A DNA stretch of 64,000 nucleotides, from positions 3,313 to 67,312 of the forward strand of contig VXLY01000028.1 in the NCBI GenBank assembly GCA_009841335.1, in the 5' to 3' direction. The notes beneath the pieces were generated by a model, which did no database searches, had not been told where the DNA came from, and was given only the letters and a program-made list of their open reading frames with translations. Origin of the DNA: Rhodothermaceae bacterium. GTDB taxonomy: Bacteria; Bacteroidota; Rhodothermia; Rhodothermales; Bin80. The translations under genes were made by a program, and so were the position numbers. Below, piece by piece: positions 14,534 through 33,906 of this stretch (within the stretch, counting starts at the first letter, position 1; each line of letters starts with the position of its first letter).

Positions 14534-14583
14534 CTGTTCAGACTCCTCCAGTTTATTGGTTGACTAAATGATTCCGGGTGTTC

Positions 14584-17500
14584 CTAGAAGGTCACCTGGA
14601 GTCCGAAATAAACCTGCCTTGGCAGGAGACCTTGATTGTACCAGTCCCACTCGCTCTCCTCCCCCGTGGTCGGATTGACCGGCAGCATTCCTTCTTCGTG
14701 ATAGGTCTCTAAAGCATTGCCGGTCAGGAAGTTGAGCCGCTTGGAGTTGAACACATTGTGGACATCAATGCTGAATTCCATTTCTGCAACACCAGGCATA
14801 TTAATCCCTTTGGAAAGGCGCAGATTTGTATTGCGGTGGGGCTTCCAGCGCCGGTTGTTGGGTTCGGTGGAGAAATCTCCCGGCGAGTGATAGGTATAGC
14901 GGTGCCCACTTGCGTATACGTAGTATGCATTGAGGCGCCAGTCGCCCAGAGGATGAAAGAAGCCAAGTGCCGGCCCAAATTCCGGTGGCGAAAAGAGGTC
15001 CAAGATCAGCTTCACACTGGTGGTTGGATTCCAGGTGTCGCTGTTGGTGCCCGACAGCCCCTTATCGCCCAGGCTCACGCCATGCAGCGTATTGGGTCGA
15101 ACCGGGTTGCCCTCCTCATCCGTGATGAAGACCTGCCGGAAGCCGTACTGCCCGGAGCGGACGAATGACCTGTTGAAAATGATTCGTGCACGAGCATGCT
15201 CCAGGAACAGGGAGTGCAGGGACAGCTCCAGGCCGCGTACGTCCACATACCCCCCATTGGAAGTGACGCGGCTACGGCCGCCGCCCGGCGCAAATCCGAG
15301 TGGGTTCGCCGCATCAAAATGCACTTCCGTGGTTACCGCCCCACCTACACCGAAGAGGTTATCGCCGATATTGTTGGGCGACTGCCGTACACCCAGCGAG
15401 GTCAGGCTCTTTCCATCCCTGTAATAAACCGTGACATCCAGATTTGCAACGCCCGGAATATGTTGGTCAAATCCGAGCTCGTACTGGATAATCTTTTCAA
15501 AACTGAGGTCTGGATTGCCCGTACTGGTGTTCGGGTGATAGAACACAAACACGTAACTCGTCGTGTCCGGCGAGGCATGCGGAGCACCGGCGGACGAGCC
15601 AAAGACGTGAAAAATGGTGGGGCCGCCACCAATAAGCTGCCAGGCTGGACGCTGGTTGAAGTGCCCATAGGAAAAATGGAGCACTGTATTTTCGGTGACT
15701 GGGTGAGAAATACCGAAACGCGGTGAGAGGACGGCCTTGGTTTCAGTATCCACGCCGTGTTCTTCATCAGAATACGTGACTATTTCGTCGGGCGGTACGC
15801 CGACCATGTTGGTGATCAGTGCAGGATCGAATATAGACGGCGCCACTTTCGTGTTGGCATTGAACGCATCAAGGCGCAGTCCAGCGTTGATCACCATACC
15901 ATTGACCTCAATTTTTCCTTGCGCGTACGCGGCGGCGTCCCAGGGATTGAAGTCGGGGCGGGTCGCATGGTTGGAGTAAACGGCACCGGGCATGGCGCCT
16001 GCCTTGAACCGCTTGGAGACGTACTGCGGCGAATACATCGCCCCAGTCTTAACCTGGAAAAAACGGTTGATCTGATTGGTGTAAGCGGCCTTGAACAACC
16101 AGGCATCTGCCTCCGCGGTGAGCTGAAAAATGCCGGGGTGTCCCCGGTGAAAAATCGGCGGCAGCAGAAATAGCGGATTGCCGGGAATCATGGTCTCGTC
16201 CCATTGCGTTCCGAATTCCTCGGAGTTTGGATCGTACGTGTCGCTGGCTTCCAGCTGCCTGAAGTTGTTGCGGTCCAGGTCCATTGATGTGTAGCTCGCC
16301 TGGACATCCAGGAAGGAGGCAGGATTGAATACGTGCGTCCATTTCAGCTGCCCGCTCTTGAGTCGCATGTATTCCGGGGGCGAGGGCAACTGAAAAATAT
16401 GCGAAGTACCGTACGGCCAATACTTGAAGGTGGAGTAGCCCGAATAGTAGAACGGCGCCGGACCCCAGAGGCCGGCAATAAACGAATCTTCACTGGACCA
16501 ATAACTCAGCCGGGGACCCTCGGTATTGTTGAACCCCTGAACCATCCCCGACAATTCCAGTCGGTTGCTGCGGGATAGCTGATAGTCAAACTTTCCCTGA
16601 TAATTCCAATCTCTAGAATAGGTTAGATAGGCCGGAAATTCCGGGGCATCCTTGAGATACTTTCCGGACAGCAAGAAGCCGAGTTTGTCGGTGATCGGTC
16701 CGTAGATGGTTGCTTCGGTTTCCCAAGTCGCGCGCTCGGCGTATTGCTGCATTCGCCTGGACGGTTCTCCGAAAAGATCTCCGGAAATAAAGTTCCTCCA
16801 AGCATCCAGTCGTTCTTGGGGTGTTCTGTTGACCCACTCGCCTCCTCCCGTATTCTCCGTCCAGTAATCCAGGGTCGCCATGGTTGCCCATTCGTAATTC
16901 TCCTGACTGTAGATATTTCGGCCCCAGTGGTACTTGCCAGCGGGCCGCAGACGCGCGCGAACCGTTCCCTGAATGCGATCCATCGCCGACTTGGTAACGA
17001 TGTTGATGATGGCCCCCATTGCTCGGCCGTATTCCGCATTCCATCCCCCAGTGAGCACTTCAAGCTCAGAAATGGCCGTGGTGTTGACACTTGTCAGATT
17101 GCCGCCAGAAACATTATCCCGCAGGCTGAGCCCATCCATGTAGTAATTGTCCTCCAGACCGAAGCCGCCGCGAATGCCTCCGTTAATGTTGGTAGCTGCC
17201 TGGGTTTCGATAGCCTCCAGGACTGTGTTGGCCCAGCTGTTGGCTATTTCTTCGCCACTCATGCGCTCCTTGCTGCCGGTCAGGTCGACCTCCACGGGCG
17301 GACGCTCGGCAGTAACCACGAGTTCGTCGGTCTCGAGAACCGCCTCGGTCAGTTCGAAGTCTACCGGCGTTGTCTGATCTATGAATACCCGGGCGTCCGT
17401 CTTCGTGACAGTCACAAATCCGACGAAAGACGCCTGAACGCTATTTAGGCCGGGTGGCACCCGCAGTATGAAGTAGTTGCCATCCACATCGGTGGCTGTC

Positions 17501-17664
17501 CCAAGGCCCGTCCCGACAACAACGACATTGACCCCCGGCAAGGGCTCGCCAGTGCTGGCATCGGTAACTGTTCCTTGAATTTTGCCCGTCTGGGACTGGG
17601 CCAGTGCCACACCCTGAGAGGCCATAAGCAGGGCGAAAAGGAGGGTAGATAGTCGAGTAGGCAT
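14584..17664 (-). CDS. TonB-dependent receptor with N-terminal carboxypeptidase-regulatory-like domain (no cognate SusD)
   Basis: Signal peptide MPTRLSTLLFALLMASQGVALAQ. CarboxypepD_reg-like segment GKIQGTVTDASTGEPLPGVNVVVVGTGLGTATDVDGNYFILRVPPG. Plug region (VVTAERP...) and a terminal aromatic barrel strand (YFGLQVTF). Confidence 0.85.
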   Translation of the reverse strand: MPTRLSTLLFALLMASQGVALAQSQTGKIQGTVTDASTGEPLPGVNVVVVGTGLGTATDVDGNYFILRVPPGLNSVQASFVGFVTVTKTDARVFIDQTTPVDFELTEAVLETDELVVTAERPPVEVDLTGSKERMSGEEIANSWANTVLEAIETQAATNINGGIRGGFGLEDNYYMDGLSLRDNVSGGNLTSVNTTAISELEVLTGGWNAEYGRAMGAIINIVTKSAMDRIQGTVRARLRPAGKYHWGRNIYSQENYEWATMATLDYWTENTGGGEWVNRTPQERLDAWRNFISGDLFGEPSRRMQQYAERATWETEATIYGPITDKLGFLLSGKYLKDAPEFPAYLTYSRDWNYQGKFDYQLSRSNRLELSGMVQGFNNTEGPRLSYWSSEDSFIAGLWGPAPFYYSGYSTFKYWPYGTSHIFQLPSPPEYMRLKSGQLKWTHVFNPASFLDVQASYTSMDLDRNNFRQLEASDTYDPNSEEFGTQWDETMIPGNPLFLLPPIFHRGHPGIFQLTAEADAWLFKAAYTNQINRFFQVKTGAMYSPQYVSKRFKAGAMPGAVYSNHATRPDFNPWDAAAYAQGKIEVNGMVINAGLRLDAFNANTKVAPSIFDPALITNMVGVPPDEIVTYSDEEHGVDTETKAVLSPRFGISHPVTENTVLHFSYGHFNQRPAWQLIGGGPTIFHVFGSSAGAPHASPDTTSYVFVFYHPNTSTGNPDLSFEKIIQYELGFDQHIPGVANLDVTVYYRDGKSLTSLGVRQSPNNIGDNLFGVGGAVTTEVHFDAANPLGFAPGGGRSRVTSNGGYVDVRGLELSLHSLFLEHARARIIFNRSFVRSGQYGFRQVFITDEEGNPVRPNTLHGVSLGDKGLSGTNSDTWNPTTSVKLILDLFSPPEFGPALGFFHPLGDWRLNAYYVYASGHRYTYHSPGDFSTEPNNRRWKPHRNTNLRLSKGINMPGVAEMEFSIDVHNVFNSKRLNFLTGNALETYHEEGMLPVNPTTGEESEWDWYNQGLLPRQVYFGLQVTF

Positions 17665-17800
17665 GATTTACCTTGTTCTGCTGACAGGATTATCCCAATG
17701 GGAGCACGAGGCGCCATGAGAGTCTGCACAGCAGATACCTACATCATCATTAAGCCCTACAACTGTCTGCCACCACCGGACTACCCAAGCCGCCTGTCCT

Positions 17801-17829
17801 ATATTAAACAACTACTTAACAATTGTCAA
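17801..17829 (-). promoter_or_regulatory. sigma-70-type promoter candidate for the TBDR-sulfatase operon
   Basis: The minus strand reads TTGACA (17829-17824), a 17-nt spacer, then TAATAT (17806-17801). This lies about 137 nt upstream of the TBDR ATG at 17664. An 8-bp palindrome ACAATTGT (17819-17826) overlaps the -35. Confidence 0.4.
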
Positions 17830-18330
17830 GAGGGTCGGTACAAAGCCCCCACGCGACATAATTCACTCGCAATCATGAATTGTTGCGTGTTTGTCCTTGG
17901 TTAAAGACTGAGTTGAACCCACGGGGCAAGGTATCTAATTGGTGAGCCAATCAGCGCATCTAATTTGAGTCCATTGTGCAGAGTCAGCCAGCTCTGGAGG
18001 ATCCTCATACTTGTGGCATCATTGTCAGCCTGAATTCCAATTTTATTTGAGACCTTCATACCGATACTGTCAAGATTTTGTGAAATTTATAGACCGATTG
18101 TTCTCGCCGCAGTACTGCACAGTGATGACTAGAATTGAGGGGTGATGCAGTGAGGGCGTCGAAGGCCTTTTCTGTTTGACACCCACTCCTCCGGTGCAGT
18201 TGCGGTGCGGACTGGTCGAAAACGAGTCTCTGCACTTCCCCGGGCTTGAATCCGCAATGCTAATCTCTTGAACCCTGTCTGGCCGTACCAAATGGCGACA
18301 TGCCAGCGTGCCAAGCCTTGACAGACCCTA

Positions 18331-18550: not shown

Positions 18551-20101
18551 CTAATGTCCGGGGTTCTGCGTCACCACGCCACCGGAAATATCAATTTCCA
18601 ATTGCGGAATCGGATACACGAGACGTTCCGGCGTTAAGCTGAAGCTTGTCGGCCCATTGTAATTGGTGATCCTCTGGAACGTGGTCTGCTGGGCCCCCAA
18701 TTGCGCGTTCATTATTGCGATAGTCTGAGCCTCTGGAAGTCTGACCAGATCGAACCAACGGTGCATTTCAAAGGCAAACTCCAGCCTACGCTCCTTCATC
18801 AGCTTTTCCATGAAGCTGCCGGGCGTGTCGGGGCCAATATCCGCAAGACCCGCACGGCTCCGAACCTCGTTAATTAGGGCATAGGCCTCGCCACCCTCTC
18901 CCAGCGACTCCGCAAGCGACAACAGCACATCGGCATGGCGCAAAAGGACAAGATTGACGTCAGCTCCGTCCGACTCCGCGCTTGTATCTATAAACTTGGT
19001 GATATACCCCCCGGGCTCACGGCCCTCGACAGTGCCAAACGTGTGCGGAATCCGCAGATCATTCGGATCATCAAAGGCATCAATCAAGTCCTGAGTGACA
19101 AACGGGAAGAGAATCTCGCGTGTTGAGCCTCCAGCAACAATGCCCAGTTCGACAGCAACACTCTGAGGAATAAAGTGCTGGCGGAACAACCCCGTCTGAT
19201 TCGCTGGGTTAAAACTGACTTCAAAAATGGACTCAGCCGAATTGTCATTGCCGGGGCTATGGATCATCCCATAGTCGCTAAGGAGCGAATGCCTGCTGAC
19301 TACCTGACGTAGAGCGGCTGTCGCGGCCCCCGCATTTCCCCGCTGCAATTCTACTTTTCCCAGCAACGTCAGAGCGGCTGAGTTGGTAGCCCTGCCGACT
19401 TCATGGCCGGAACTGCCATCGTAGGTTTCGGGAAGCACGGCGGCAGCCTCCGTCAGATCTCGTACTATCTGATCGTAGACCTCCGCCTCCGAGGACCGCG
19501 CTATGGCAGTTTCCTCAAAATCTTCCGTAGGGGCTACCCTCAGCGGTGTGCCTCCCCAGAGATTGACCATATGGTAGTAAGTGAACGCGCGCACGAATTT
19601 GGCTTCTCCCACAATACGCGCAATCAGTGCTGCATCTCCGTCGGCATCGGGACCTCGGACGATGACCGTGTTGGCGAGATTAATGCAGTTGTACATCGCG
19701 GCCCACGTGATATCCAACAGCAGATTACCCGGTACCTCCGCAAATATATCTATCTCGACACGCTCCGCTTGGTCCGTATGGTCCAAGCCGGTATTATCTG
19801 ATCTTCCCTCAATAATGTTGTAAATAGTCCCGCTCCCGTAGATGGATCTCTGCGCGGCGTACACGCCGTTCATCCCGATCAGGAGCTCCTGATCCGTTGA
19901 GAAAAATGACGGAGCATCAATCCGGTCAACGGGTTCCACATCCAGGAAACTGTCACACGATAACCCGGCTAGCGAAGACAGCAGCACAAACATCACGACC
20001 CTAAACCCTCTTGCCGTGAAGCATTGCCAGTAGTTTTTCCGTAAGGGAGCACCTCCGTCCGCGGGCCCCGATAGCAATTTTTCGTTGTTCGACGATTTCA
20101 T
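18551..20101 (-). CDS. SusD/RagB-family nutrient-binding outer-membrane lipoprotein
   Basis: Follows susC by 11 nt if the start is the Met at 20101 (the ORF extends to 20143). Lipobox LSSLAGLSCDSFLDVEP. TPR-like SusD features are present (AYALINEVRSRAGL, ERRLEFAFEMHRWFDLVR). Confidence 0.85.
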   Translation of the reverse strand: MKSSNNEKLLSGPADGGAPLRKNYWQCFTARGFRVVMFVLLSSLAGLSCDSFLDVEPVDRIDAPSFFSTDQELLIGMNGVYAAQRSIYGSGTIYNIIEGRSDNTGLDHTDQAERVEIDIFAEVPGNLLLDITWAAMYNCINLANTVIVRGPDADGDAALIARIVGEAKFVRAFTYYHMVNLWGGTPLRVAPTEDFEETAIARSSEAEVYDQIVRDLTEAAAVLPETYDGSSGHEVGRATNSAALTLLGKVELQRGNAGAATAALRQVVSRHSLLSDYGMIHSPGNDNSAESIFEVSFNPANQTGLFRQHFIPQSVAVELGIVAGGSTREILFPFVTQDLIDAFDDPNDLRIPHTFGTVEGREPGGYITKFIDTSAESDGADVNLVLLRHADVLLSLAESLGEGGEAYALINEVRSRAGLADIGPDTPGSFMEKLMKERRLEFAFEMHRWFDLVRLPEAQTIAIMNAQLGAQQTTFQRITNYNGPTSFSLTPERLVYPIPQLEIDISGGVVTQNPGH

Positions 20102-20112
20102 TGTTCTAGGGA

Positions 20113-23100
20113 TCAATAGGTTAGGTGGATGCCGAAGGTCCATATGCGCGGCAGGGGCAGGTGCGGTGGACTCGTCAGTCCAATTTCCCTGCCATCGGCT
20201 ACGCCTGGAATCCTGGATCCGCCGAACAGCGACGGGCCGCCGGCCGAATTCCGTCGCCCTTCAGGATTGCCGCCAATGAAGCTGGTCCACATGTGGACGT
20301 TCTCCATAGACGTATAGATTCTCCCGCGCGCACCCCGGACGCCGATGCCCTGAAGCAGCCTCTGGGGCAGGTTGTAGGTCAGCGTTATGTTGCGGAGTCT
20401 GAGAAAATCTGTATCCTGAATACCAAGGCTGGAAACGGCTCCAATCCCGGTATCAAACCCTGAGGCGCTCGGCGTCTTGCCATCGCCAGGCTCACTTTCC
20501 GAAATGTACCGGCCATCGTACCAGAATTCCCTCGACAGATTGACACGACGGAACGGTGCGCCGATCTGAATGATGTATAGATCCAAAACAGAGGCACCGG
20601 CCTGTCCGTTGAACCGGACACTGAGCTCAAAGTCCTTGTAGCGAACATCCGTGTGGAATCCGTAAATGTAGTCCAGATTCGTTCCCTCCAGATTAACGCC
20701 ATCAGGTCCCAGGAAATTACTGATCGATCCATCGCCATCGGCATCTCTGTAGACCATCGTGCCCGGTGCCGCCCCCGGCTGCGCCGGATGCGTTTCCCCT
20801 TCCCGTACGATGCCCACATGCTCAACGACATGAATGTTCTGCAATTCTCCACCCACCGTGCGGCGTAACGCGCCGAAGAAATTTCTAATCTCTTCGTCGC
20901 CGCCCAAATCCAGAATCTCCTGATTGTTGTTCGTCACATTGCCGCCCACAACCAACTCGAAATCATTTGTCTCCATCACGGCGACGCTCGCGGACAGCTC
21001 AATGCCATCGTTGCGCATGCTGCCAATATTGGTCAGGAAGCCCCCATAGCCAGACGACGCCACGATATTCCGCGATAAGAGCAGGCTGGTAGTGACATTA
21101 TTGTAGTAATCCAGCACCACGCTGTAGCGGCCATCAAAGAGAATCAGATCGAGTCCAATATCAAGTTGCTCCGATGTCTCCCAGGTCAGTCCAGGGTTAC
21201 CCGGATCACCAATGGCTACTCCAGTCAATTGCACGGCTCCGAGCGAATGATTGACAGGTCTCAAGCTCGGCCGTGCAATGAAGTCGGGAATTGCATTGCT
21301 GCCTGTGGAGCCGTACGACACCCGAAGCTTTGCGTCGTTGACAAAACCCAGCTCTTTGACAAAGTCCTCTTCCGAGAGGCGCCAGCCGAGAGCGAACGAA
21401 CCGAACGTTTGATAGCGATTATTGGCCCCGAACCTTGAACTCCCGTCCCGCCGTACTGTGGCTGTTAGCAGGTATCGGTCCTTAAAGGAATAGTTGAGCC
21501 GTCCGAGAACAGAGGCCAGTGCGTTTTCGCCAAATCCGTTTCTAGAGGTAAGGGTCTCCGAGTCACCAATAGACAGAATCCGCGCTCCCGGAATCTGTAG
21601 CCCTGCTACGTTTGAGGACACGAATTCGACTCTGTCCCGCTGCAGGGTAAAGCCGGCCAGTACATCAAAGAAGTGATCCTGCCTAAATTGCCTACGGAAG
21701 TTGACCGTGTTTTCGTTCAGCCATCCCCGCTGCCACACCTGCCCCACATTCAGAGTGCTGACTGACGGATAGGAAAATCGGGGAGTGCCAGGGGGAGCGT
21801 CGTAGAGCGATTCATTCTTGTCAGATCCGATATTGGTAGACAGAATCGACTTGAACGTAATGCCGGGAAACGCCTCCACCGCCAAACTTACTCCTCCCAG
21901 CATCCTAAACAGATCATGCGTGCGCTTGTAGTGGTTGACGGTCTGCAGGGGGTTCCCAATTGGAAAGTTGCCTGGGACATAACTACCGATGGCATATTCG
22001 CCATCGGAATCAAAGATCGGGATAATGGGTGGCAAGAGAATGGCCTGCGCCCACGCAGATCTCCAGTCACTGCCATCTTCGCTGGGCCGACTGGACTTCG
22101 TGATCTTGGACACACTCGGAGCCACATTCAGCCCGAAAGTGATTCTGTTGTTGGGGCGATAATCCAGTTTGACGCGGGCACCAACCTTGTTGAATCCCTC
22201 GCCGGGTATGACCCCAGATTCCTGTGTATAGCTGCTTGAAAGCAGATAGGAGACTTTTTCGGTTCCCCCGTGTGCGGAAAGGGACCAGCTGTGGAAAGGA
22301 GCAGTCTCATAAAGCTCATCCTGCCAGTCCGTGTTCGTGGACCCATCCCAAACGCTGGAAATCCACTCGGGCGTCGTACCGCCATTTTTCTCAGTATGAA
22401 ATTGAACGTACTCCTGGGCATTCAGCATCTTAAAGCGTGAAGCCTGCGTGATGTTTGATACCCCAGCATTCATAGCTAAATTAATCTGAGCGGTCCCGAT
22501 AAGTCCAGACTTTGTGGTGACGATAATCACGCCGTTGGCTCCCCGAGACCCGTAAATGGCTGTTGCAGAGGCGTCCTTGAGCACATCAATCGATTCAATA
22601 TCCGCGGGGTTAAGCATTTGGGCATTCCGCTGGTCGGTCGGAAACCCATCGATTACCCAGAGGGGCTCGTAGCCGGCGGACAGGGAACCGATTGCGCGGA
22701 TAGAGATCTGAGCCAGATCCCCTGGGTTGGCACTGCGATCAGCTACATTGATGCCCGGCATCAGACCCTGCAATGTTTTTTCTACCGAAGCAACCGGCCG
22801 CGAAGCTATATCCGCAGCCGAAACTGAGGCAATGGATCCGGTGACATCTTTGCGCAACTGGGTACCGTAACCCGTAACGATAATTTCCTCAAGCCCCGCC
22901 ATGTCCTCCTCCATCATCACATCAATGACCGTCCGTCCTTCGATAGCCACTTCCTGCGTAACGAAGCCTACGAACGAGAATACGAGAATCGTTGCGTCGT
23001 CGGGGACGGTAAGCTCATAGTTGCCATCTATATCAGTAGCCGCCCCGATGAAGGTTTCCGGAACGCGTACCGTCGCACCGGCCAAGGGGTCTCCATCGAC

Positions 23101-23699: not shown

Positions 23700-23736
23700 G
23701 GGAATTATATACGTGTGTACCCATGAATTTACGAAA
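23700..23736. repeat. terminal inverted repeat of the IS (transposase-distal end)
   Basis: GGGAATTATATACGTGTGTACCCATGAATTTACGAAA. The reverse complement of 26325-26361 is GGGGATTATATACGTGTGTACCCATGAATTTACGAAA, differing only at position 4. Confidence 0.85.
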
Positions 23737-23766
23737 TAAGCTCATAGTACGAGCCTGCAAGAGTTT

Positions 23767-23934
23767 CTAACGTAGCTTGATCTTACCCGGGGGCGTATTC
23801 AGTAGTTTCTTGGCTAACGCTTCCGGTGAACCCAGCTGGATTGACCGCTGTACGTCTGCATAATCCTTTGTCGGACGCCCACGCGGGACTGACGCTTTCT
23901 TGCTCTTGCTTGATCTCCTATTGGTTCGTTTCAT
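23767..23934 (-). CDS. small basic ORF inside the IS (55 aa), function unknown
   Basis: Own translation: MKRTNRRSSKSKKASVPRGRPTKDYADVQRSIQLGSPEALAKKLLNTPPGKIKLR*. The ATG lies 2 nt after the methyltransferase stop. It falls below the ORF-track length cut-off and could be spurious. Confidence 0.3.
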   Translation of the reverse strand: MKRTNRRSSKSKKASVPRGRPTKDYADVQRSIQLGSPEALAKKLLNTPPGKIKLR

Positions 23935-23936
23935 GG

Positions 23937-25262
23937 CTATGCTGCTCTTGGTAATTGGGGAAGTCTATTGGCAAAGAAATCTTCTACGGTGTAAATCTGG
24001 ATCGTTGGAACGTCCATGAATCGGCCTGTACTGGCAGCGGCGTTTCGCATTCCGTTAGTTACACGATCTTCAAAGCAAGTGAAGATTCCCATATCTGCAC
24101 CGGCCTGCTGCCTTGCTCCGTTGAATGCTTGGACATGACCGGGATTCGTATGTCCGCCTTTCACTTGGGAAACCATGTCAGCGAAGTACCCCCTACGCAA
24201 TGGTATCCGGCCCCATCCATCTATCCCTCTATCGCCCCGTTGCTTTTTATTGGCTTCCATCCCGGGAGCCAAAGATGCTGCCCATGTCTCAAAACGGAAC
24301 GGATCAATGCTTGCCATTTCACGGGCTTGGCTTACCGTTTTTGGCATTCCTATGAACTCTACATCATCCCACACGCTGTCAAAGCTTTCTTTGAATCGCT
24401 TTTCAATCACCTGACAGGCTTTCGTGCATATATCAATCCCAATCCATCTGCGATCAAGTTCCTGAGCTGCTTGAAGTGTCGTGCCGCAACCGCAGAATGG
24501 ATCAAGTACCAACTGATTTTCTTGTGTAGATAACTTGATTACCCGTTGTAAGAGTGAGCCCGGTTTTTGAGTCTCAAATCCCTGATGTTCTTTTTGATTA
24601 CCCCTAAGTGCAGGAATATCCCATACGTCACGCATATTCACCATTGTGTACGCCCCTCCGTGATCCTCAAGAATCTCTATATTTTTGAATCCGTATTTGT
24701 GTGCTAGGTAGGACTTTTCCTTTTGTGGATAGAACTGGTGATGTTTTGATTTGGCATACAGGAATATGGTGTCATGCTTTCTGGATAACCAGCGTTTACT
24801 CACTCCCCCAGTCTTGTAATACCACACTATCTCATTTAGAAACGAATCCTTATGGGACGAATAGATGGCATTTAAGACAATGCGCAACAGGTAATTCATT
24901 GTAGGATCACAATGCAGAAACATGGTACCCGTAGGTTTCAGAACCCGAAAGCACTCCAGCAACCGGTTTGCCATGTAGGACAGATAGGCTAAATCTGAGC
25001 CCTCCCCGAGAATCGTTCTTAGCCCCTCCATCGTTGGAGCCATATCATTGCGACTGGCTACTTCGTGGAAATCATCTACAGCTTCATGCCACTGCCACGT
25101 ATCCTTAAATGCTACCCATTGAGCACCCCCCATATTCGCATTGTAAATCCGCTTTGAATTGAACGGAGGGTCAGCATAGATTACGTCCACGGATTCATCG
25201 GGAATAAACTCCCGCATCACGTCCAGACAATCCCCAAAATAGAGCCGGTTGGGCGTACTCAT
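23937..25262 (-). CDS. beta-class N6-adenine/N4-cytosine DNA methyltransferase fused to a C-terminal Mrr-like PD-(D/E)xK domain
   Basis: Motif IV DPPF (aa 31-34, VIYADPPFNS) precedes motif I (aa 254-262, DPFCGCGTT), which is the beta-class order. The C-terminal 120 aa or so have Mrr-catalytic-domain features: FRFETWAASL, GDRGIDGWG, MVSQVKGG, GADMGIFTCF. The ATG overlaps the transposase stop (ATGA at 25259-25262). Confidence 0.8.
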   Translation of the reverse strand: MSTPNRLYFGDCLDVMREFIPDESVDVIYADPPFNSKRIYNANMGGAQWVAFKDTWQWHEAVDDFHEVASRNDMAPTMEGLRTILGEGSDLAYLSYMANRLLECFRVLKPTGTMFLHCDPTMNYLLRIVLNAIYSSHKDSFLNEIVWYYKTGGVSKRWLSRKHDTIFLYAKSKHHQFYPQKEKSYLAHKYGFKNIEILEDHGGAYTMVNMRDVWDIPALRGNQKEHQGFETQKPGSLLQRVIKLSTQENQLVLDPFCGCGTTLQAAQELDRRWIGIDICTKACQVIEKRFKESFDSVWDDVEFIGMPKTVSQAREMASIDPFRFETWAASLAPGMEANKKQRGDRGIDGWGRIPLRRGYFADMVSQVKGGHTNPGHVQAFNGARQQAGADMGIFTCFEDRVTNGMRNAAASTGRFMDVPTIQIYTVEDFFANRLPQLPRAA

Positions 25263-26302
25263 GATCTTGGCAGATCATCCAGTTGCCCAGTGAGCATTTT
25301 GTAGGTAAGTCGTTTTCCGACCAGTCCCTTTGCTGTTTGCTCCATCTGGGTAACGGTGTCCAGGTGTCTGACGTTATGACGCCCCACAAACTCATCTACG
25401 TAACGCTGAAGGTGCTCTGGCGACATCTTGTGATATGTGCCATAGTATCCACGCTTCAACAGCGACCAGAAGGATTCCATGCCGTTGATGTGCGCCATAC
25501 CGTCTACGTACTCTTTGACTGAGTGCTTAACGGTTGCGTGGGCTGCTCTACGTAAAGCCTGGTAGGCTTTCGCGTCGTCAGTATAGGTTTGTGCTTCCTG
25601 ACGCGAAGTGCTGTATACGAAGCCTGTGAGCGTCTGAGCGGTAGTATCTGATACTACTCGTGCCTGTACCTGCTTGGTAGTACGGTCTTTTGTACCTACT
25701 ACGGCTGTTTTACCAACCGGACCGCGCCCCGCATTCAGTTTCTTATGAGCGTGTTTGTTCTTCTCTTTTCCACCTACATAAGTCTCATCCACTTCAACGG
25801 GCCCAGTAAATTGCTCCAGTTCCACATCCCACGTCTTGCGAATCCTGTGGGCTAAGTGCCACGCGGTCTTCTGAGTAATATCTAAGTCCCTGTGCAACTT
25901 CATGGATGATACGCCTTTGATCCCAGTATCTATGATGTAAATGGCTAATGCCCATACTTGATAACTCAATTTGGAATCCTGCATGACCGTTCCCACACGT
26001 ACACTGAACCGCTTACGACAGCCTTTCTCCCTGCACCTGTACGGCATATGATGCTTGGCACCCGTCTGGACGTTTGTGCTTCCACAATGAGGACAGGCAG
26101 GTTCATTTCCCCAACGCTGCTCGGCAAACCATCTTTCTGCCGTGGCATCATCAGGAAACAACTTCATGAGTTTCATCCATGAGATTCCTTTGCGGTACGA
26201 TTTGCCGGGCCCTGTTCTACGCTTTTCCATTGCTGTATTTACGTGTTGCTGTGTACCCAATATACGAAACAAGTTTGATATATGTTGCAATTTATGCAAC
26301 AA
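25259..26302 (-). CDS. IS1595-family transposase (zinc ribbon plus DDE domain)
   Basis: LMKLFPDDATAERWFAEQRWGNEPACPHCGSTNVQ...YRCREKGCRKRFS is the N-terminal transposase zinc ribbon. VEVDETYVGGKEKNKH and the following DDE region are typical of ISXO2/IS1595 transposases. The likely true start is the Met at 26230 (MEKRRTG). Confidence 0.9.
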   Translation of the reverse strand: MLHKLQHISNLFRILGTQQHVNTAMEKRRTGPGKSYRKGISWMKLMKLFPDDATAERWFAEQRWGNEPACPHCGSTNVQTGAKHHMPYRCREKGCRKRFSVRVGTVMQDSKLSYQVWALAIYIIDTGIKGVSSMKLHRDLDITQKTAWHLAHRIRKTWDVELEQFTGPVEVDETYVGGKEKNKHAHKKLNAGRGPVGKTAVVGTKDRTTKQVQARVVSDTTAQTLTGFVYSTSRQEAQTYTDDAKAYQALRRAAHATVKHSVKEYVDGMAHINGMESFWSLLKRGYYGTYHKMSPEHLQRYVDEFVGRHNVRHLDTVTQMEQTAKGLVGKRLTYKMLTGQLDDLPRS

Positions 26303-26324
26303 TTACATACCAATTTGCAACTGT

Positions 26325-26361
26325 TTTCGTAAATTCATGGGTACACACGTATATAATCCCC
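26325..26361. repeat. terminal inverted repeat of the IS (transposase-proximal end)
   Basis: TTTCGTAAATTCATGGGTACACACGTATATAATCCCC, the reverse-complement partner of 23700-23736. Confidence 0.85.
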
Positions 26362-26369
26362 TAAAAAAA
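26362..26369. repeat. target-site duplication, right copy (TAAAAAAA)
   Basis: Identical to 23692-23699 and directly abuts the IS end. Confidence 0.8.
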
Positions 26370-29231: not shown

Positions 29232-29456
29232 AGCGATGGTAATGTGCTGGTATATTCAAATGCCGGGATCCACGTTACGCGCAGGACTCAGTGTCAAAAC
29301 AGCGCAGGGGCCCGCAATAATTGCAAAGGCGGTGAGTATCGGTACGAACGTCCCATGCAATATAAAGTATTCGCGATCGCGAATTGTTGCATGTTTGTCT
29401 CCGGCTCAGGGCAGAGTTGAACGCGTGGAGAAAGGGATCTAATTGGTGACCGGATC

Positions 29457-29650
29457 ATGATGGCTTCTGCGGAAAAAAAAGCGCAACGTGACGATCTACT
29501 GGGAAACGAAACGCGTGGCGGCGGACAAGTGGGTATAATCCTGGCCGTGCAATTCATCCCGGCGAAAGCGCATGACAGCAAGGGCTTGGTGCCCCTGGTC
29601 AAGAAGGTGCGTAAGCAGCGCAGCCAGGAGGTGTTGGTAGAGAAGGGGCA
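29457..29650 (+). pseudogene. decayed IS4/IS5-family transposase fragment
   Basis: The translation GIILAVQFIPAKAHDSKGLVPLVKKVRKQRSQEVLVEKGHKSEEI resembles the central DDE region of IS4/IS5 transposases (..ilav.vTpAnvhDsk.l..Ll........vlaDKGYdS..). The catalytic DKGY is changed to EKGH. There is no N- or C-terminal domain and no intact ends. Confidence 0.5.
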
Positions 29651-29888
29651 CAAAAGCGAAGAGATTGGCGCGCTACCGCCTCCAGTACTTGCTTTGCACA
29701 TTCAATCTGCGACCCTTTCATTTGCGTACTCCCCGAAGATCTTTCAGGCTGCAGTAACGGCGGAAACGAATCCAAAATCTTCGCAATATTCAATATTGTC
29801 CTCTTGTAGTATTCTTCTCTAATCATTTAAGTGCCATATTTCAACAGTCTCATACTATATTTCCAGACCTTGAATCTCTCAAAACGTT

Positions 29889-31151
29889 TTGATCAGGCTT
29901 CTATGTCTCGGTGACGCACACCTGGGGCGATATCCGTCCAGGGTCCCGTCTGGTGAAAACTCGCTTTCAGTGCGTGCGATCTGGGAGCGGGCGGTCTCAA
30001 CCGCCATTGAAGAGCGCGTTGATGCCGTAATTCTCACTGGGGATATGGCCGACAACAAGAACGCCTATTTCGAAGCCTATGGTGCACTTCGGAAGGGAAT
30101 TACCCAACTCAGTCAAATAGGTATCCCAGTCGTAGCAGTTGCCGGCAATCACGATTATGATGTCTTTCCTCAACTTGCCGAATCAATGCCCGGGGATACT
30201 TTCACGCTTCTTGGGCGTGACGGCATTTGGAATGACACGGTGCTAAAGACGCGTTCTGGCCGCAACCTCCGTTGTGTGGGGTGGTCATTTCCAAGTTCCC
30301 ACTATGATCGTTCCCCCTTGGACTCACTTGGGCTTAGCCAAAGCAACGACTTCACGATTGGTATTGTACATGGTGATTTGGACACGCAAAGCGTGTATGC
30401 TCCACTTGCCTCACAGGACCTGGTTGACCAACCTGTGGATTTATGGCTGCTCGGACATGTGCATGCCCCTAAGTTGTACTGTGATCACAGAGTTCCCATA
30501 CTCTATCCAGGATCACCTCAACCCCTTGATCCTGGAGAGCCCGGCACTCATGGACCCTGGATGATCACAATCAGCGAGGACAATCAAATTAGTCCTGTAC
30601 AACTGCCACTTGCTTCCGTGCGATATGAAACCATTCCGGTTGATGTATCTGCTGCGGTGCAGATCAGCGATGTAAAAACCCTAGTCGCTGAACAGCTTGA
30701 GCAGCGGGGCAGTGAACTGATCGAAAGCCACCCGAACCTTCTATATCTATCGTGCCGCCCTGTTCTAACTGGACAAACACGGCTTCACCGTAGACTCTCT
30801 ATCGAGGGAATCGCTGATGTTTATGATCTTGACGTTCAAGTGAGTGAATGCAGCATCACTGTAGATAAAGTATTTATTGAGACCTCACCAATCCGAGACC
30901 TGAATGAGATCGCACAACTCAATAACGACCCCCCAGGCATTCTTGCTCGGTGGATACTGGAACTAACTGACGGCGGAGATCACATCTTGCTTGATCCTGC
31001 TCGTAAGTCTTCTGCAGCCGTGTATAATAGTGCTGGATTTAAGACTCTCCGCGAAAAGGAACCCGATGCAGCGACGCTCTCCAGATTGGTGATTCAGCAG
31101 AGTATGCTGCTCCTTGACGAACTTCTTGCACAGAAAGAGGAAAATGACTGA
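29889..31151 (+). CDS. Mre11/SbcD-like metallophosphoesterase (YhaO-like DNA repair exonuclease family)
   Basis: All calcineurin-like phosphoesterase motifs are in order: LGDAHLG, ILTGDMADN, VAGNHDY, IVHGDL, LLGHVHAP. These are followed by a 190-aa C-terminal domain. The start is a TTG at 29889 (no in-frame ATG near the motif-I position). The stop overlaps the ATG of the ATPase (ATGACTGA). Confidence 0.8.
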   Translation: MIRLLCLGDAHLGRYPSRVPSGENSLSVRAIWERAVSTAIEERVDAVILTGDMADNKNAYFEAYGALRKGITQLSQIGIPVVAVAGNHDYDVFPQLAESMPGDTFTLLGRDGIWNDTVLKTRSGRNLRCVGWSFPSSHYDRSPLDSLGLSQSNDFTIGIVHGDLDTQSVYAPLASQDLVDQPVDLWLLGHVHAPKLYCDHRVPILYPGSPQPLDPGEPGTHGPWMITISEDNQISPVQLPLASVRYETIPVDVSAAVQISDVKTLVAEQLEQRGSELIESHPNLLYLSCRPVLTGQTRLHRRLSIEGIADVYDLDVQVSECSITVDKVFIETSPIRDLNEIAQLNNDPPGILARWILELTDGGDHILLDPARKSSAAVYNSAGFKTLREKEPDAATLSRLVIQQSMLLLDELLAQKEEND

Positions 31152-33906
31152 GTCTCTTGTCTTCAAGGAGGTCCGGATTGAGCGGATGTACGGCTTACCC
31201 TTTGACCTTTACCTCTCAGAACTGTCCCCACACCTAAATATTGTATTTGGCCCGAATGGGTCAGGAAAGACCACCATCGCCAACGCGCTGAATGGCCTGC
31301 TTCTGCCAAGTACAGGGCGTGCAGTGAAACTGTATGGACAGGCAAACCTGGGCTTCGGTAGTCAGACACTTTATCTGGACGTAAATGGGACGCGTGCAGA
31401 ATGCAGGATCAATGCGAGAACGGTTGATCAAAGCGAACTCTCGCAGTTCCTGCGACCCAAAAGCTATCACCTATCCTTGCAGGAACTGCTCCCCGAAAAA
31501 AATGACGATAATGATCTTGCCCGGGAAATCATCAAGCAAGCCAATGGTGGATTTGACATTGTAGCTGCGGGCAAGAAACTTGGTTTTAACCTCCAGAAAC
31601 GCTACAACAAAACAAATGAAGCCAAAGAGTTCGAATCGATCAGCAAGAAATTGCGATCTGTTGTTCAAGAACAGAACAGTCTTCAACAACAGAAAAATCA
31701 GCGTCAAAACGTCATTCACGAGCTTGGTCTAAGTCTGGAAGCCGGCCGTCGCGCGGAATTGATCGCAAAAATAATTCAATGGCGCAGTGCTGAAGCCGAG
31801 TACCAAAAAGCCCACGCCGATGCAGAATCCTACCCTCGTGTTATCCGATCCAGTCAGAACCTAACTGACGCAGTAAAGAACGCACAGGAGCTAACCAGGT
31901 CTATTGATCGCCTGAAAGGAGAGGCGGATGAAGGACTCCGAACTATTGAACGTGTGCAAAAAAACCTTGAAGGGAACCGTCTCTCACCGGATGGTCTCGA
32001 ACCCGGTGCGCTGCAGCTGCTGATCACTCAGGTTCGTGATTTTTCCGAAAAATCCCGTAAGCTCGAAGAACTGAAAGAAACGCACCAAGCCGCTGAAAAA
32101 CAGGCCATGGATGCCTGGAAAAGGCTGGGAGGCCTCTTGCCTGAAGGATGGCAGCCTGTATTTACCCGAGAAAACCTTGCACAACTGCAAAGCTATGCGA
32201 AAAACCTAGGTTTACACACCCAGGAGAAACAAGCACTGGAAAAGTTAAAGATCTTGCTTGGAGCAGACCATACCACGCATCAAGATGCGGACGGCAACAG
32301 GCTTCGCGATGCGCAGCGGGATATTCTGCAATGGATCCTGGCCCTGAGAGAAGAATCTCCTCAACGAAAGAGGATCCTCTCGATTCTCTTGGGCGCGACC
32401 TTCGCTTCTGTACTTATGTCTGTGGGACTCGGGATTGCGATTCATCCTGGCGGATTTCTGGGACTGATTATCAGCCTACTGATCGGGTGGGCATATACCC
32501 TTGTACGTTCAGAGCATCAACCGCAGATATCCTCCCCGCAAAAAGATAATATTAAGCGCTACCTTCCCGAACTGCCCGATAATCCCGACCCGGACACCCT
32601 GCAAGCGGGGCTTGATCAACTGACTGAGCAACGCTCACAGGTACAGTTAGACATGCTCAAACTGAATGAATCCAGTCGGATAGAGCGATCTCTTGAAAGC
32701 ATGTCCGTGCAACAGTCCAAGTTAGAAGCACAGAATGAAGAACTAATAAATCGGATCAATATTGACCCACCAAATGATGTAATCTCCCTGATTGAGCTGG
32801 TTGGCAGCATCCTTAGCTGGCAGGAGTTTGATGATAAAGCAAGAGAACTGACAAACAGATGCGAACAGGTATCTGAGACCTACCGTACCCTTGCGGAAAC
32901 AGTAGGCAACACGTTTGAGCAATACGGATACGAAAAACCCGTCAACCCAAATGATGCCGAGCGATTGCTTGATATCATCAGAAATGACGATGATGCAGCC
33001 AAACGTGACCATGCCCGGCTGACACAGGAAAAAAGAGGAGCGGAAACAACGCAGCGCAACCTGGAACTTCATGAATCCCAGTATGCAAAACTGTTCGATG
33101 ACCTGGAGCTTGAAGTTGGGGATCTATCCGGTCTGGCGGCCAGTGCAAGGCAGTTCTCAGAATGGGAAGAAGCAAACTCCCGTAGGAACAACCTAAAGGT
33201 TAGAGCGAACACGTTACGCCCCTCATCAGAGGATCTGCGTGAACATGAATCACTACTGGAACTCGAAAATATTGAGGATGAACTCGCATCTGCACAGAAA
33301 ATAGCTGCACAAGCAAGGGAGTTGCAAGATCATCTCACCAGGCTTGACGCGGAGATTGAACGCACTGAAAAAGGGCGTTCACTGGAAAATGCCTTGGTAG
33401 AAAAAGAGAACAAACGTGTGGAGCTCGAGAACGTACGGAATCGAAAAGCGGCCAGAGCAGTCGGCCAGGCCATACTGGATACCCTCCGCGACAGTGCAAT
33501 CAGTAATGCACCCCCGGTATTTCAGCGTGCACAAGAGAATTTTGAACGAGTCACCGATAGCCGGTATACCCTCGGTATCCCCGAAGACAATACCTTCAGA
33601 GCAAGGGATCATCAACTTGATCGTGACTTTGATCTAACAAAGTTGTCCAGTGCTACGAGAGTCCAGCTTCTCCTGTCCGTGCGCCTCGCATTCGTAGAGA
33701 CGCAGGAAACCAATTACCGGTTACCACTAACTCTGGACGAAACACTAGCCAATAGTGATGATCCGCGCGCGCAGGCTATCATCAAGACCATGTCAACCCT
33801 GGCAGCCAACCGCCAGGTCTTCTACTTCACGGCCCAGGAAGACGAAGTGAATAAATGGAAAGATTACGTCCCTGCTGACCTATTGCATGTGCACAACATT
33901 GGTTAG
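31144..33906 (+). CDS. Rad50/SbcC/SMC-like ABC ATPase with central two-helix membrane hairpin (YhaN-like)
   Basis: Walker A is FGPNGSGKTT near the N-terminus. There are long heptad-rich Glu/Lys/Gln/Leu stretches. Two hydrophobic helices, ILSILLGATFASVLMSVGLGIAI and GGFLGLIISLLIGWAYTLV (about nt 32374-32505), lie mid-protein. At the C-terminus are the signature-like LSSATRVQLLLSVRLAF, Walker B LPLTLDETLANSD, then VFYFTAQ. The ATG at 31144 is preferred over the ORF-track start at 31114. Confidence 0.8.
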   Translation: MTESLVFKEVRIERMYGLPFDLYLSELSPHLNIVFGPNGSGKTTIANALNGLLLPSTGRAVKLYGQANLGFGSQTLYLDVNGTRAECRINARTVDQSELSQFLRPKSYHLSLQELLPEKNDDNDLAREIIKQANGGFDIVAAGKKLGFNLQKRYNKTNEAKEFESISKKLRSVVQEQNSLQQQKNQRQNVIHELGLSLEAGRRAELIAKIIQWRSAEAEYQKAHADAESYPRVIRSSQNLTDAVKNAQELTRSIDRLKGEADEGLRTIERVQKNLEGNRLSPDGLEPGALQLLITQVRDFSEKSRKLEELKETHQAAEKQAMDAWKRLGGLLPEGWQPVFTRENLAQLQSYAKNLGLHTQEKQALEKLKILLGADHTTHQDADGNRLRDAQRDILQWILALREESPQRKRILSILLGATFASVLMSVGLGIAIHPGGFLGLIISLLIGWAYTLVRSEHQPQISSPQKDNIKRYLPELPDNPDPDTLQAGLDQLTEQRSQVQLDMLKLNESSRIERSLESMSVQQSKLEAQNEELINRINIDPPNDVISLIELVGSILSWQEFDDKARELTNRCEQVSETYRTLAETVGNTFEQYGYEKPVNPNDAERLLDIIRNDDDAAKRDHARLTQEKRGAETTQRNLELHESQYAKLFDDLELEVGDLSGLAASARQFSEWEEANSRRNNLKVRANTLRPSSEDLREHESLLELENIEDELASAQKIAAQARELQDHLTRLDAEIERTEKGRSLENALVEKENKRVELENVRNRKAARAVGQAILDTLRDSAISNAPPVFQRAQENFERVTDSRYTLGIPEDNTFRARDHQLDRDFDLTKLSSATRVQLLLSVRLAFVETQETNYRLPLTLDETLANSDDPRAQAIIKTMSTLAANRQVFYFTAQEDEVNKWKDYVPADLLHVHNIG

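Follow-up and report, generated by a model that had tools for sequence, protein, structure and literature searches.

A chromosomal operon for a predicted membrane-anchored relative of Mre11-Rad50 in a Rhodothermaceae bacterium

Mre11-Rad50 (SbcCD) is among the best-studied of all DNA-repair machines, and the zinc hook and the switch histidine are treated as core features of it. In Bacillus subtilis, SbcE is an SbcC-like protein that is devoid of the CxxC motif and is encoded next to the SbcD-like YhaO (SbcF); its unique central domain, hydrophobic in its first half and holding a conserved proline, is insoluble, and SbcE and SbcF act in double-strand-break repair and in transformation and form polar foci (PMC2811018). 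The subject of the present work is a pair of overlapping genes found on a 64,000-nucleotide stretch of DNA from a Rhodothermaceae bacterium (GenBank assembly GCA_009841335.1, contig VXLY01000028.1, positions 3,313 to 67,312 of the forward strand), hereafter called the window. The first gene encodes an Mre11/SbcD-like nuclease and the second a Rad50-like ABC ATPase, in which a predicted membrane hairpin stands in place of the zinc hook and the switch histidine is missing. Our sequence comparisons and structure predictions suggest that the pair is most likely a conserved chromosomal operon for a membrane-anchored relative of Mre11-Rad50 (SbcCD), which would serve housekeeping DNA-end processing or repair and not mobile defence. 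The family to which the pair belongs is uncharacterised: its public annotation goes no further than 'AAA/SMC family ATPase', the database record of the exact ATPase protein reads 'AAA family ATPase [Rhodothermaceae bacterium]', and our literature search found no paper on a membrane-anchored or transmembrane Rad50-like protein, nor one that describes this family.

The nuclease, the ATPase head and their family

The two open reading frames (ORFs) and the elements on which the argument rests are located in the window as follows:

29889..31151, + strand: ORF1, Mre11/SbcD-family nuclease gene (420 amino acids, TTG start)
31095..31136, + strand: C-terminal helix of the nuclease, QQSMLLLDELLAQK
31144..31151, + strand: 8-nucleotide overlap of both ORFs, ATGACTGA, with the ORF1 stop codon TGA at 31149-31151 inside it
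31144..33906, + strand: ORF2, Rad50-like ABC ATPase gene (920 amino acids, ATG start)
31249..31272, + strand: Walker A motif GPNGSGKT (amino acids 36-43)
32374..32505, + strand: predicted two-helix membrane hairpin, ILSILLGATFASVLMSVGLGIAI-HPGG-FLGLIISLLIGWAYTLV (amino acids 411-454; 44 residues, uncharged)
33643..33666, + strand: signature-like motif LSSATRVQ (amino acids 834-841)
33727..33762, + strand: Walker B motif LTLDE (amino acids 862-866) and D-loop NSDD (amino acids 870-873)
33817..33837, + strand: H-loop strand VFYFTAQ (amino acids 892-898), without histidine

The 8-nucleotide overlap of the two genes indicates translational coupling. The TTG start of the nuclease gene is kept in two homologous loci of related genomes (L001 and L003, see below), and the ATG start of the ATPase gene agrees with the N-termini of its homologues. 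By profile and by fold, the product of ORF1 is of the Mre11/SbcD type; its di-metal site is intact and its C-terminal helix is conserved. All five Mre11/SbcD motifs are found (GDAHLG at amino acids 8-13, GDMADN at 51-56, GNHDY at 86-90, HGD at 161-163 and GHVH at 189-192), and the metal ligands D9, H11, D52, N87, H88, H161, H190 and H192 are invariant in an alignment of 27 nuclease homologues. A profile built from these 27 homologues matches Thermotoga maritima Mre11 (3qg5) with an E-value of 1.9e-16 over residues 2-263; the AlphaFold2 model is of high quality (predicted local distance difference test, pLDDT, 91.3; predicted template modelling score, pTM, 0.85), and a Foldseek search of the PDB with this model gave Mre11 or SbcD for each of the 50 best matches (50/50), the first of them being Mre11 in an Mre11:Rad50 complex (3tho_B, 6.6e-13, 449 alignment columns). 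Pfam recognises only a generic Metallophos domain (E 4.7e-12) and all the SbcD/Mre11 equivalog models of NCBIfam remain far under their cut-offs (42 bits versus a cut-off of 77.65 for TIGR00619), which argues that the nuclease is a divergent branch and not an SbcD orthologue. The C-terminal helix is kept in all 27 aligned homologues, and residues 394-419 are helical in the AlphaFold2 model; we infer from this a candidate ATPase-binding element.

ORF2 encodes an ABC ATPase head of the Rad50 type, whose two halves are separated by ~790 mostly helical residues. Pfam, NCBIfam and PADLOC recognise little beyond the P-loop in this protein, and no dedicated Pfam or NCBIfam model matched it in the scans that were made; the kinship with Rad50 comes from profile comparison. 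Pyrococcus furiosus Rad50 (3qku) is the best solved relative of the ATPase family profile, with both head halves aligned (E 1.5e-7), and the C-terminal profile matches Rad50 1f2t_B at 5.5e-9. The alignment pairs an F..(F/V)T.G.Y segment, LSSAT with LSGGE, LDE with LDE and NSDD with YLDE; in full, LSSATRVQ aligns with LSGGERIA of P. furiosus Rad50, and the Walker B motif and D-loop align with Rad50 LILDEPTPYLDEE. Among 34 diverse family members, G36, N38, G41 and K42 of Walker A are invariant, as are D865 and D872, and the family consensus of the signature-like motif is LSS[GA]T. In the AlphaFold2 model (pLDDT 80.7) residues 158-803 are nearly all helical, and its Foldseek matches (Smc5/6, condensin, Rad50, MukB, JetC and LmuB) describe a generic SMC-like fold. 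An earlier note on this DNA had reported the overlap, the five nuclease motifs and the ATPase head with its Walker A, LSSATRVQ and LTLDE motifs at the two ends of a long coiled-coil-type region, and our results agree with it on each of these points. We further observed that Gln113 in LSLQELL (amino acids 110-116, nucleotides 31471-31491), which follows a strand, occupies the likely Q-loop position; this residue is Gln in the short forms of the family and His in most of the long forms (consensus L.LH.LL).

The likeness to SbcCD/Mre11-Rad50 thus extends over the fold and catalytic motifs of the nuclease, the ATPase head through signature, Walker B and D-loop, the long helical arms and the order of the genes, nuclease then ATPase. 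What sets the pair apart, besides the low scores of its nuclease, is an ATPase with a predicted membrane hairpin for the zinc hook and without the switch histidine.

Nuclease and ATPase are strictly encoded together throughout what is a very large family. When its size is counted as clusters at 50% identity, an exhaustive profile search gave at least 1,827 representatives at E<1e-30, and the 150 best profile matches are all full-length, with a median of 1,161 amino acids. Closest to the window are 48 full-length relatives of the ATPase with 52-92% identity, all of 905-929 amino acids; beyond those 48, the identity falls to 22-28% and the proteins are ~1,150 amino acids long. The 920-residue ATPase of the window is a short variant without a C-terminal extension of ~230 residues. 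This extension, present in most members (residues ~930-1164 of P0065) and missing from the clade of the window and a few other short forms, shows the motifs HLWY, WG.L, GRG.PVDR and SGAVS and has no Pfam match. Among 80 metagenome loci fetched via an alignment of the nuclease, those on a long enough contig have the ATPase gene almost always directly after the nuclease gene, with a usual overlap of 4 nucleotides, and their ATPases carry both the hairpin and a TAQ-type loop. The same gene order is found in L001-L003, L018-L022, L025 and L026. Fourteen other loci, which came from a generic Walker A pattern scan of genome contigs, turned out to be ordinary ABC-transporter ATPases and were discarded. 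The family has crossed between Bacteria and haloarchaea: a Haloarcula replicon carries the pair, annotated as 'DNA repair exonuclease' and 'SMC family ATPase', and the gene just upstream of it (5989-7842 of L023, Haloarcula sp. CBA1115 plasmid NZ_CP010531.1) encodes an NrS-1 polymerase helix-bundle domain, which is typical of plasmid or viral primase-polymerases.

The hairpin, the H-loop and the relation to SbcE

Neither protein has hydrophobic segments other than the two helices of the hairpin (Kyte-Doolittle maxima over 19 residues of 2.15 and 2.05), and AlphaFold2 places these helices at residues 406-432 and 435-455. An uncharged span lies at the same position in 158/158 family proteins, with a median length of 42 residues, the longest uncharged run elsewhere in these proteins having a median of 16; a central Pro or Gly is present in 129 of them, the flanks bear a net positive charge, and hydrophobicity is conserved while the sequence itself is poorly conserved. 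No CxxC was found in the central region of 157 family proteins. The replacement of the zinc hook by two hydrophobic helices, which the earlier note had proposed, is borne out in that a two-helix hairpin is predicted at the apex of the coiled coil and no CxxC is present.

Because the zinc hook that was replaced is itself a dimerisation module, one may wonder whether the hairpin is no membrane anchor at all but a buried 'hinge', a four-helix bundle formed by two ATPase subunits, so that the complex would be soluble like SbcCD. The central domain of B. subtilis SbcE has been shown to be insoluble, not to be membrane-inserted (PMC2811018), and the low confidence of AlphaFold2 in this region would suit such a hinge as well. 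Against it stands the total lack of charged residues over ~42 residues in all 158 members, together with a hydrophobicity that is kept while the sequence drifts, the central Pro/Gly turn and the positively charged flanks: a charge-free span of this length with such a turn and such flanks has the features of a membrane hairpin and not those of a soluble interface. We consequently regard the soluble hinge as improbable, and favour a predicted membrane anchor.

The second departure from Rad50 concerns the H-loop. The earlier note had read VFYFTAQ at this site and taken the glutamine as the substitute of the histidine; the histidine is indeed missing, but the position has to be corrected by one residue. 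HMMER aligns RQVFYLTAQ with PQVILVSHD of P. furiosus Rad50, and the register of the strand puts the Rad50 histidine opposite Ala897, Gln898 being the residue that follows. A one-residue deletion in the window protein brings Gln898 to +32 from the Walker B glutamate, which we take to be the Rad50 spacing (E823/H855). Likewise, hhalign sets FYFTAQ opposite LLFTHH of an ATPase of the Pfam AAA_27 type. The motif reads TAQ in 133 of 152 diverse members, TAR in 10, SAQ in five and otherwise in four, and a histidine is found in none. In ABC ATPases, loss of the H-loop histidine usually slows hydrolysis far more than it affects ATP binding, and where Gln occurs there naturally, as in TAP1, the site is a degenerate one. 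Since the whole family has Ala-Gln (sometimes Arg) where Rad50 has its switch histidine, it is tempting to hypothesize that hydrolysis is probably slow and that the ATPase would behave as a slow clamp.

The resemblance to B. subtilis YhaO/YhaN (SbcF/SbcE) drawn by the earlier note holds for the general architecture, which matches the published description of SbcE, but does not extend to strict membership. As in SbcF/SbcE, the module comprises two genes, for an SbcD-like nuclease of ~420 residues followed by a long SMC-like ABC ATPase; as in SbcE, with which we compare by its published description, there is a hydrophobic, proline-containing central domain (HPGG turn in the window) without CxxC. 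Genes named 'YhaN family protein' on plasmids also have an adjacent SbcD-like nuclease gene ('DNA repair exonuclease'), and IMG labels one cluster of the ATPase family of the pair 'YhaN'. Our comparison set for AAA_27-type ATPases consisted of three proteobacterial plasmid proteins, two of which NCBI annotates as 'YhaN family protein' and the third, from Sphingobium, as 'AAA family ATPase'. The match to an AAA_27-type ATPase is clear by hhalign (97.8% probability, E 1e-12 over the C-terminal half), and the nucleases of both families are ~27% identical over 93% of their length. However, the window ATPase scores 16.4 bits against the Pfam AAA_27 model, whose cut-off is 22, when the Sphingobium protein scores 223 bits; the AAA_27 N-terminal domain reaches 16-20 bits in the family, again under the cut-off, and among 34 members 25 gave weak matches (best E 6.5e-6). 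The motifs differ too: Walker A is GPNG[SA]GKTT in the family of the pair and G-x-NEAGK[ST]T in the AAA_27-type ATPases, Walker B is LDE versus DD, the H-loop is TAQ versus THH, and the hydrophobic hairpin is missing from all three AAA_27-type proteins. NCBIfam gave no match to a YhaN model for the plasmid ATPase of the AAA_27 type (L024), nor for two members of the family, which leads us to suspect that the NCBI name rests on Pfam AAA_27. Taken as a whole, these comparisons place the family of the pair as a putative sister of SbcE/SbcF within the Mre11-Rad50-like systems, and not as a member of it.

Inheritance of the locus

The earlier note had situated the pair among genes of a polysaccharide utilization locus (PUL), close to a methyltransferase-carrying insertion sequence (IS) and directly after the remnant of an IS4/IS5 transposase, and had drawn from this placement the idea of an acquired accessory or defence module. 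The PUL surroundings are confirmed (SusC/SusD, GH116, PhoD-like and sulfatase genes), and so is the IS with its methyltransferase. We compared the window with four homologous loci in related genomes (L001, L002, L003 and L027). On the 2.8-Mb contig of L001, whose ATPase is 83% identical, the order SusD-SusC-GH116-nuclease-ATPase-PhoD-sulfatase-Tricorn-like gene is the same as in the window, and megablast showed the window to be collinear with both L001 and L027 across its stretch 18.5-39.8 kb, apart from two insertions. The first is a 2.66-kb insertion of the window (23700-26363), which holds the IS1595 and methyltransferase unit 3.6 kb upstream of the pair and is missing from both other genomes; it looks like a case of a methyltransferase carried as IS cargo. 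The second, of 4.2 kb, is found in L027 between the ATPase and PhoD genes (14038-18279) and contains two DNA methyltransferase genes. The elements of the window that bear on the question are the following:

23937..25262, - strand: N6/N4 DNA methyltransferase fused to an Mrr_cat/NA-iREase1-like C-terminal domain
25259..26302, - strand: IS1595-family transposase of the insertion
29232..29888, + strand: intergenic region upstream of the operon, 80-84% nucleotide identity to L001 and L027
29457-29822: weak transposase-like ORF (Pfam DDE_Tnp_1, E 0.0059, under the cut-off)

In L002, whose ATPase is 60% identical, a different insertion of ~6 kb occupies the same position between ATPase and PhoD (12821-18239), and integration seems to recur at this spot; in L003 (ATPase 53% identical) the pair is kept and its neighbours differ. 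As to the contents of these insertions, that of L002 carries a SLFN_AlbA_2/HATPase_c_4 gene, a ParA-like ATPase and unknown genes, and one of the two methyltransferases of L027 is Eco57I/type IIG-like, a PADLOC match to REase_MTase_IIG (2e-238) belonging probably to it. About 7 kb downstream of the pair, L001 also holds an SMC_N/AAA_23 ATPase gene (19350-22763) that is seemingly split by a DDE_Tnp_1 insertion sequence and for which no counterpart was found in the window.

The claim of transposase debris fared less well, for it comes down to a DDE_Tnp_1 match below threshold in the ORF listed above, and a plasmid search with this ORF gave no match. It proved to be unrelated to the DDE_Tnp_1 insertion sequence of L001. 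Above all, the 'debris' is itself conserved in L001 and L027, which makes it old and uninformative on any recent acquisition. The last ~90 nucleotides before the operon are highly conserved and are probably its promoter region; a scan of the + strand of 29232..29888 detected no sigma-70-type promoter, a scan that does not cover Bacteroidota promoters.

The synonymous divergence (dS) and the ratio of nonsynonymous to synonymous divergence (dN/dS) between the window and L001 are given here:

Nuclease: dS 0.58, dN/dS 0.16
ATPase: dS 0.45, dN/dS 0.20
Head segments of the ATPase (codons 1-100 and 801-900): dS 0.53-0.71, dN/dS 0.05-0.10
Five flanking genes: dS 0.30-0.62, dN/dS 0.05-0.10

Since the dS of the pair falls within the range of its flanks and the pair is collinear with them, both were inherited together, and the low dN/dS indicates purifying selection. 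The lower G+C content of the pair (0.50-0.51 versus 0.51-0.56 in the flanks) was considered as a sign of horizontal transfer and rejected, because at synonymous sites the pair has diverged as much as its flanks have, and because three genomes hold it in collinear order. The synteny check that the earlier note itself had named, therefore, speaks against acquisition: the GH116-nuclease-ATPase-PhoD-sulfatase block is syntenic in L001 and L027, with dS as in the flanks. Here the pair is part of the conserved backbone, an old chromosomal operon passed on by vertical descent, and not a recently acquired defence cargo; the mobile parts are the nearby IS and methyltransferase elements, which insert around the pair in different genomes.

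These values also bear on the suspicion that the pair is a decaying or degenerate paralogue of SbcCD, in which the loss of the switch histidine has inactivated the ATPase and which is carried passively. An H-loop without histidine, a signature motif (LSSAT) that departs from the canonical form and a dN/dS above that of the neighbouring genes could all be taken that way. Nevertheless, both ORFs are intact, dN/dS stays at 0.16-0.20 overall and at the level of the flanks in the head segments, and Walker A, the Walker B glutamate, the D-loop and the nuclease ligands are kept across the 1,827 representatives of the family; moreover, the retention of TAQ in 133/152 members argues for a selected variant rather than for decay. 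We hold such passive decay for highly improbable, and a functional operon under purifying selection is what we retain in the following.

The defence question and a possible function of the pair

Does the family act in defence elsewhere? Checked against the PADLOC 2.0 models, among them Septu, Gabija and MADS as well as Lamassu LmuB, Wadjet and PARIS, which the earlier note had advised, the pair gave no convincing match: no model went beyond the P-loop region of the ATPase (best mad8, E 2.7e-8, N-terminal only; AriA, PtuA and LmuB at the P-loop only), and the best match of the nuclease was of 1e-4 over 50 residues. No member was found in 50,697 phage records (tblastn), nor in IMG/VR contigs scanned with two peptide patterns; among 72,556 plasmids, 10 carry the ATPase, all of them non-mobilizable haloarchaeal replicons, and none is a bacterial plasmid. 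With the SMC-like defence ATPases (Lamassu LmuB, Wadjet JetC, PARIS AriA, Septu PtuA and MADS), the ATPase of the pair shares an SMC-like/ABC fold (Foldseek to LmuB and JetC, E 1e-4 to 1e-8) and the PADLOC matches at the P-loop level, whereas the partner genes differ and in none of these systems is an Mre11-type partner combined with a membrane hairpin.

We surveyed the neighbours of the pair with PADLOC over 235 flanking ORFs of 35 family loci, a crude survey that yields raw counts, and clear defence neighbours were seen at 3 to 5 of the 35 loci (BREX with PglX and BrxL, an SNF2 helicase, a PsyrT match), ~30 neighbourhoods being metabolic or housekeeping; Hma matches were assigned to L056, and the type IIG restriction-modification match to L027, by Pfam. 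There is no consistent association with defence across the family, and a modest enrichment near defence genes is possible. Three neighbourhoods are described for their own sake. In L026, a Rhodocaloribacter contig (1-7649 and 12859-16902), the pair directly follows BREX genes (PglX, PglZ and BrxL) on the same strand and is itself followed by SWIM and SNF2-helicase genes. In L056 (1231-9942), the genes directly before the pair, which lie on the same strand, are Hma-like and encode a DprA-DUF1156 fusion and a DUF499 protein. In L039 (5234-11686), AddB-like and AddA genes (UvrD helicase and PD-(D/E)XK nuclease) stand directly downstream of the pair and link that member of the family to double-strand-break resection genes.

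One could imagine from these facts that the pair is an envelope surveillance or defence module, whose tethered clamp-nuclease detects and degrades the linear ends of phage, plasmid or transforming DNA that enters through the membrane. The tether would place the nuclease at the very site of entry of foreign DNA; BREX and Hma-like genes precede the pair in the two loci just described, restriction-modification genes and IS cargo have inserted at its side in L027, L002 and the window, its rate of evolution exceeds that of the flanking genes, and the Rad50-like relatives Lamassu and Wadjet, met among the Foldseek matches, are defence systems (PMC10586767). On the other side, PADLOC sees nothing but the P-loop, phages and bacterial plasmids are devoid of the family within the searches given above, most of the surveyed neighbourhoods have nothing to do with defence, and the pair belongs here to the backbone, with the synonymous divergence of its flanks and under purifying selection. 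A dedicated defence role seems to us unlikely, although not as far-fetched as a soluble hinge or a decayed paralogue.

Our preferred reading, a membrane-anchored relative of SbcCD with housekeeping functions at DNA ends, can be put into a sequence of steps, all of which are predictions. The hairpin would enter the cytoplasmic membrane from its inner face, both ends of the hairpin staying in the cytoplasm, and would replace the zinc hook as the element that dimerises the apex; two ATPase arms would thereby hang from the membrane. Binding of ATP would engage the two heads and form a DNA clamp, which would position the dimeric nuclease on DNA ends or hairpins in the manner of SbcCD. With Ala-Gln in the place of the switch histidine, hydrolysis would probably be slow and the ATP-bound clamp long-lived, and the tether would limit the nuclease to DNA near the membrane, either broken or trapped chromosomal DNA or DNA on its way into the cell. 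Several observations weigh against this reading and have to be set beside it: insertion into the membrane is a prediction from hydropathy, the conserved uncharged span and the charge of its flanks, and the confidence of AlphaFold2 in the hairpin is just 54-69; the contact between nuclease and ATPase is something we infer; the pair evolves faster than its neighbours, with an amino acid identity to L001 of 83% compared with 89-96% for the flanks; and defence genes stand directly beside some members, that is, BREX in L026, Hma-like genes in L056 and methyltransferase/type IIG restriction-modification genes in L027.

A broader proposal may also be put forward, tentatively, as a possibility that we rate well below housekeeping repair: the family could be a widespread and distinct DNA-end surveillance machine of the cell envelope, in which a permanent hairpin tether and a slow-hydrolysing clamp would serve to inspect and cut DNA that arrives through transformation, conjugation or injection by phages, or else chromosomal DNA caught at the septum. 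The presence of defence genes beside some members makes a role against foreign DNA possible.

The finding matters in that bacteria and haloarchaea hold at least 1,800 clusters (50% identity) that have kept the nuclease and the ATPase head while the hook has been swapped for a predicted hairpin and the histidine dropped. For the locus of the Rhodothermaceae bacterium it brings a correction, the pair being part of the conserved backbone and the nearby IS and methyltransferase elements being what is mobile. If the tether is true, the family would offer a natural system in which to assess the contribution of the coiled-coil apex and the workings of a Rad50-type clamp fixed to a surface, and may likewise account for the reported behaviour of B. 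subtilis SbcE, which is polar and linked to competence. If, in addition, the surveillance proposal is true, these pairs would represent an envelope DNA-end surveillance system that has not yet been described.

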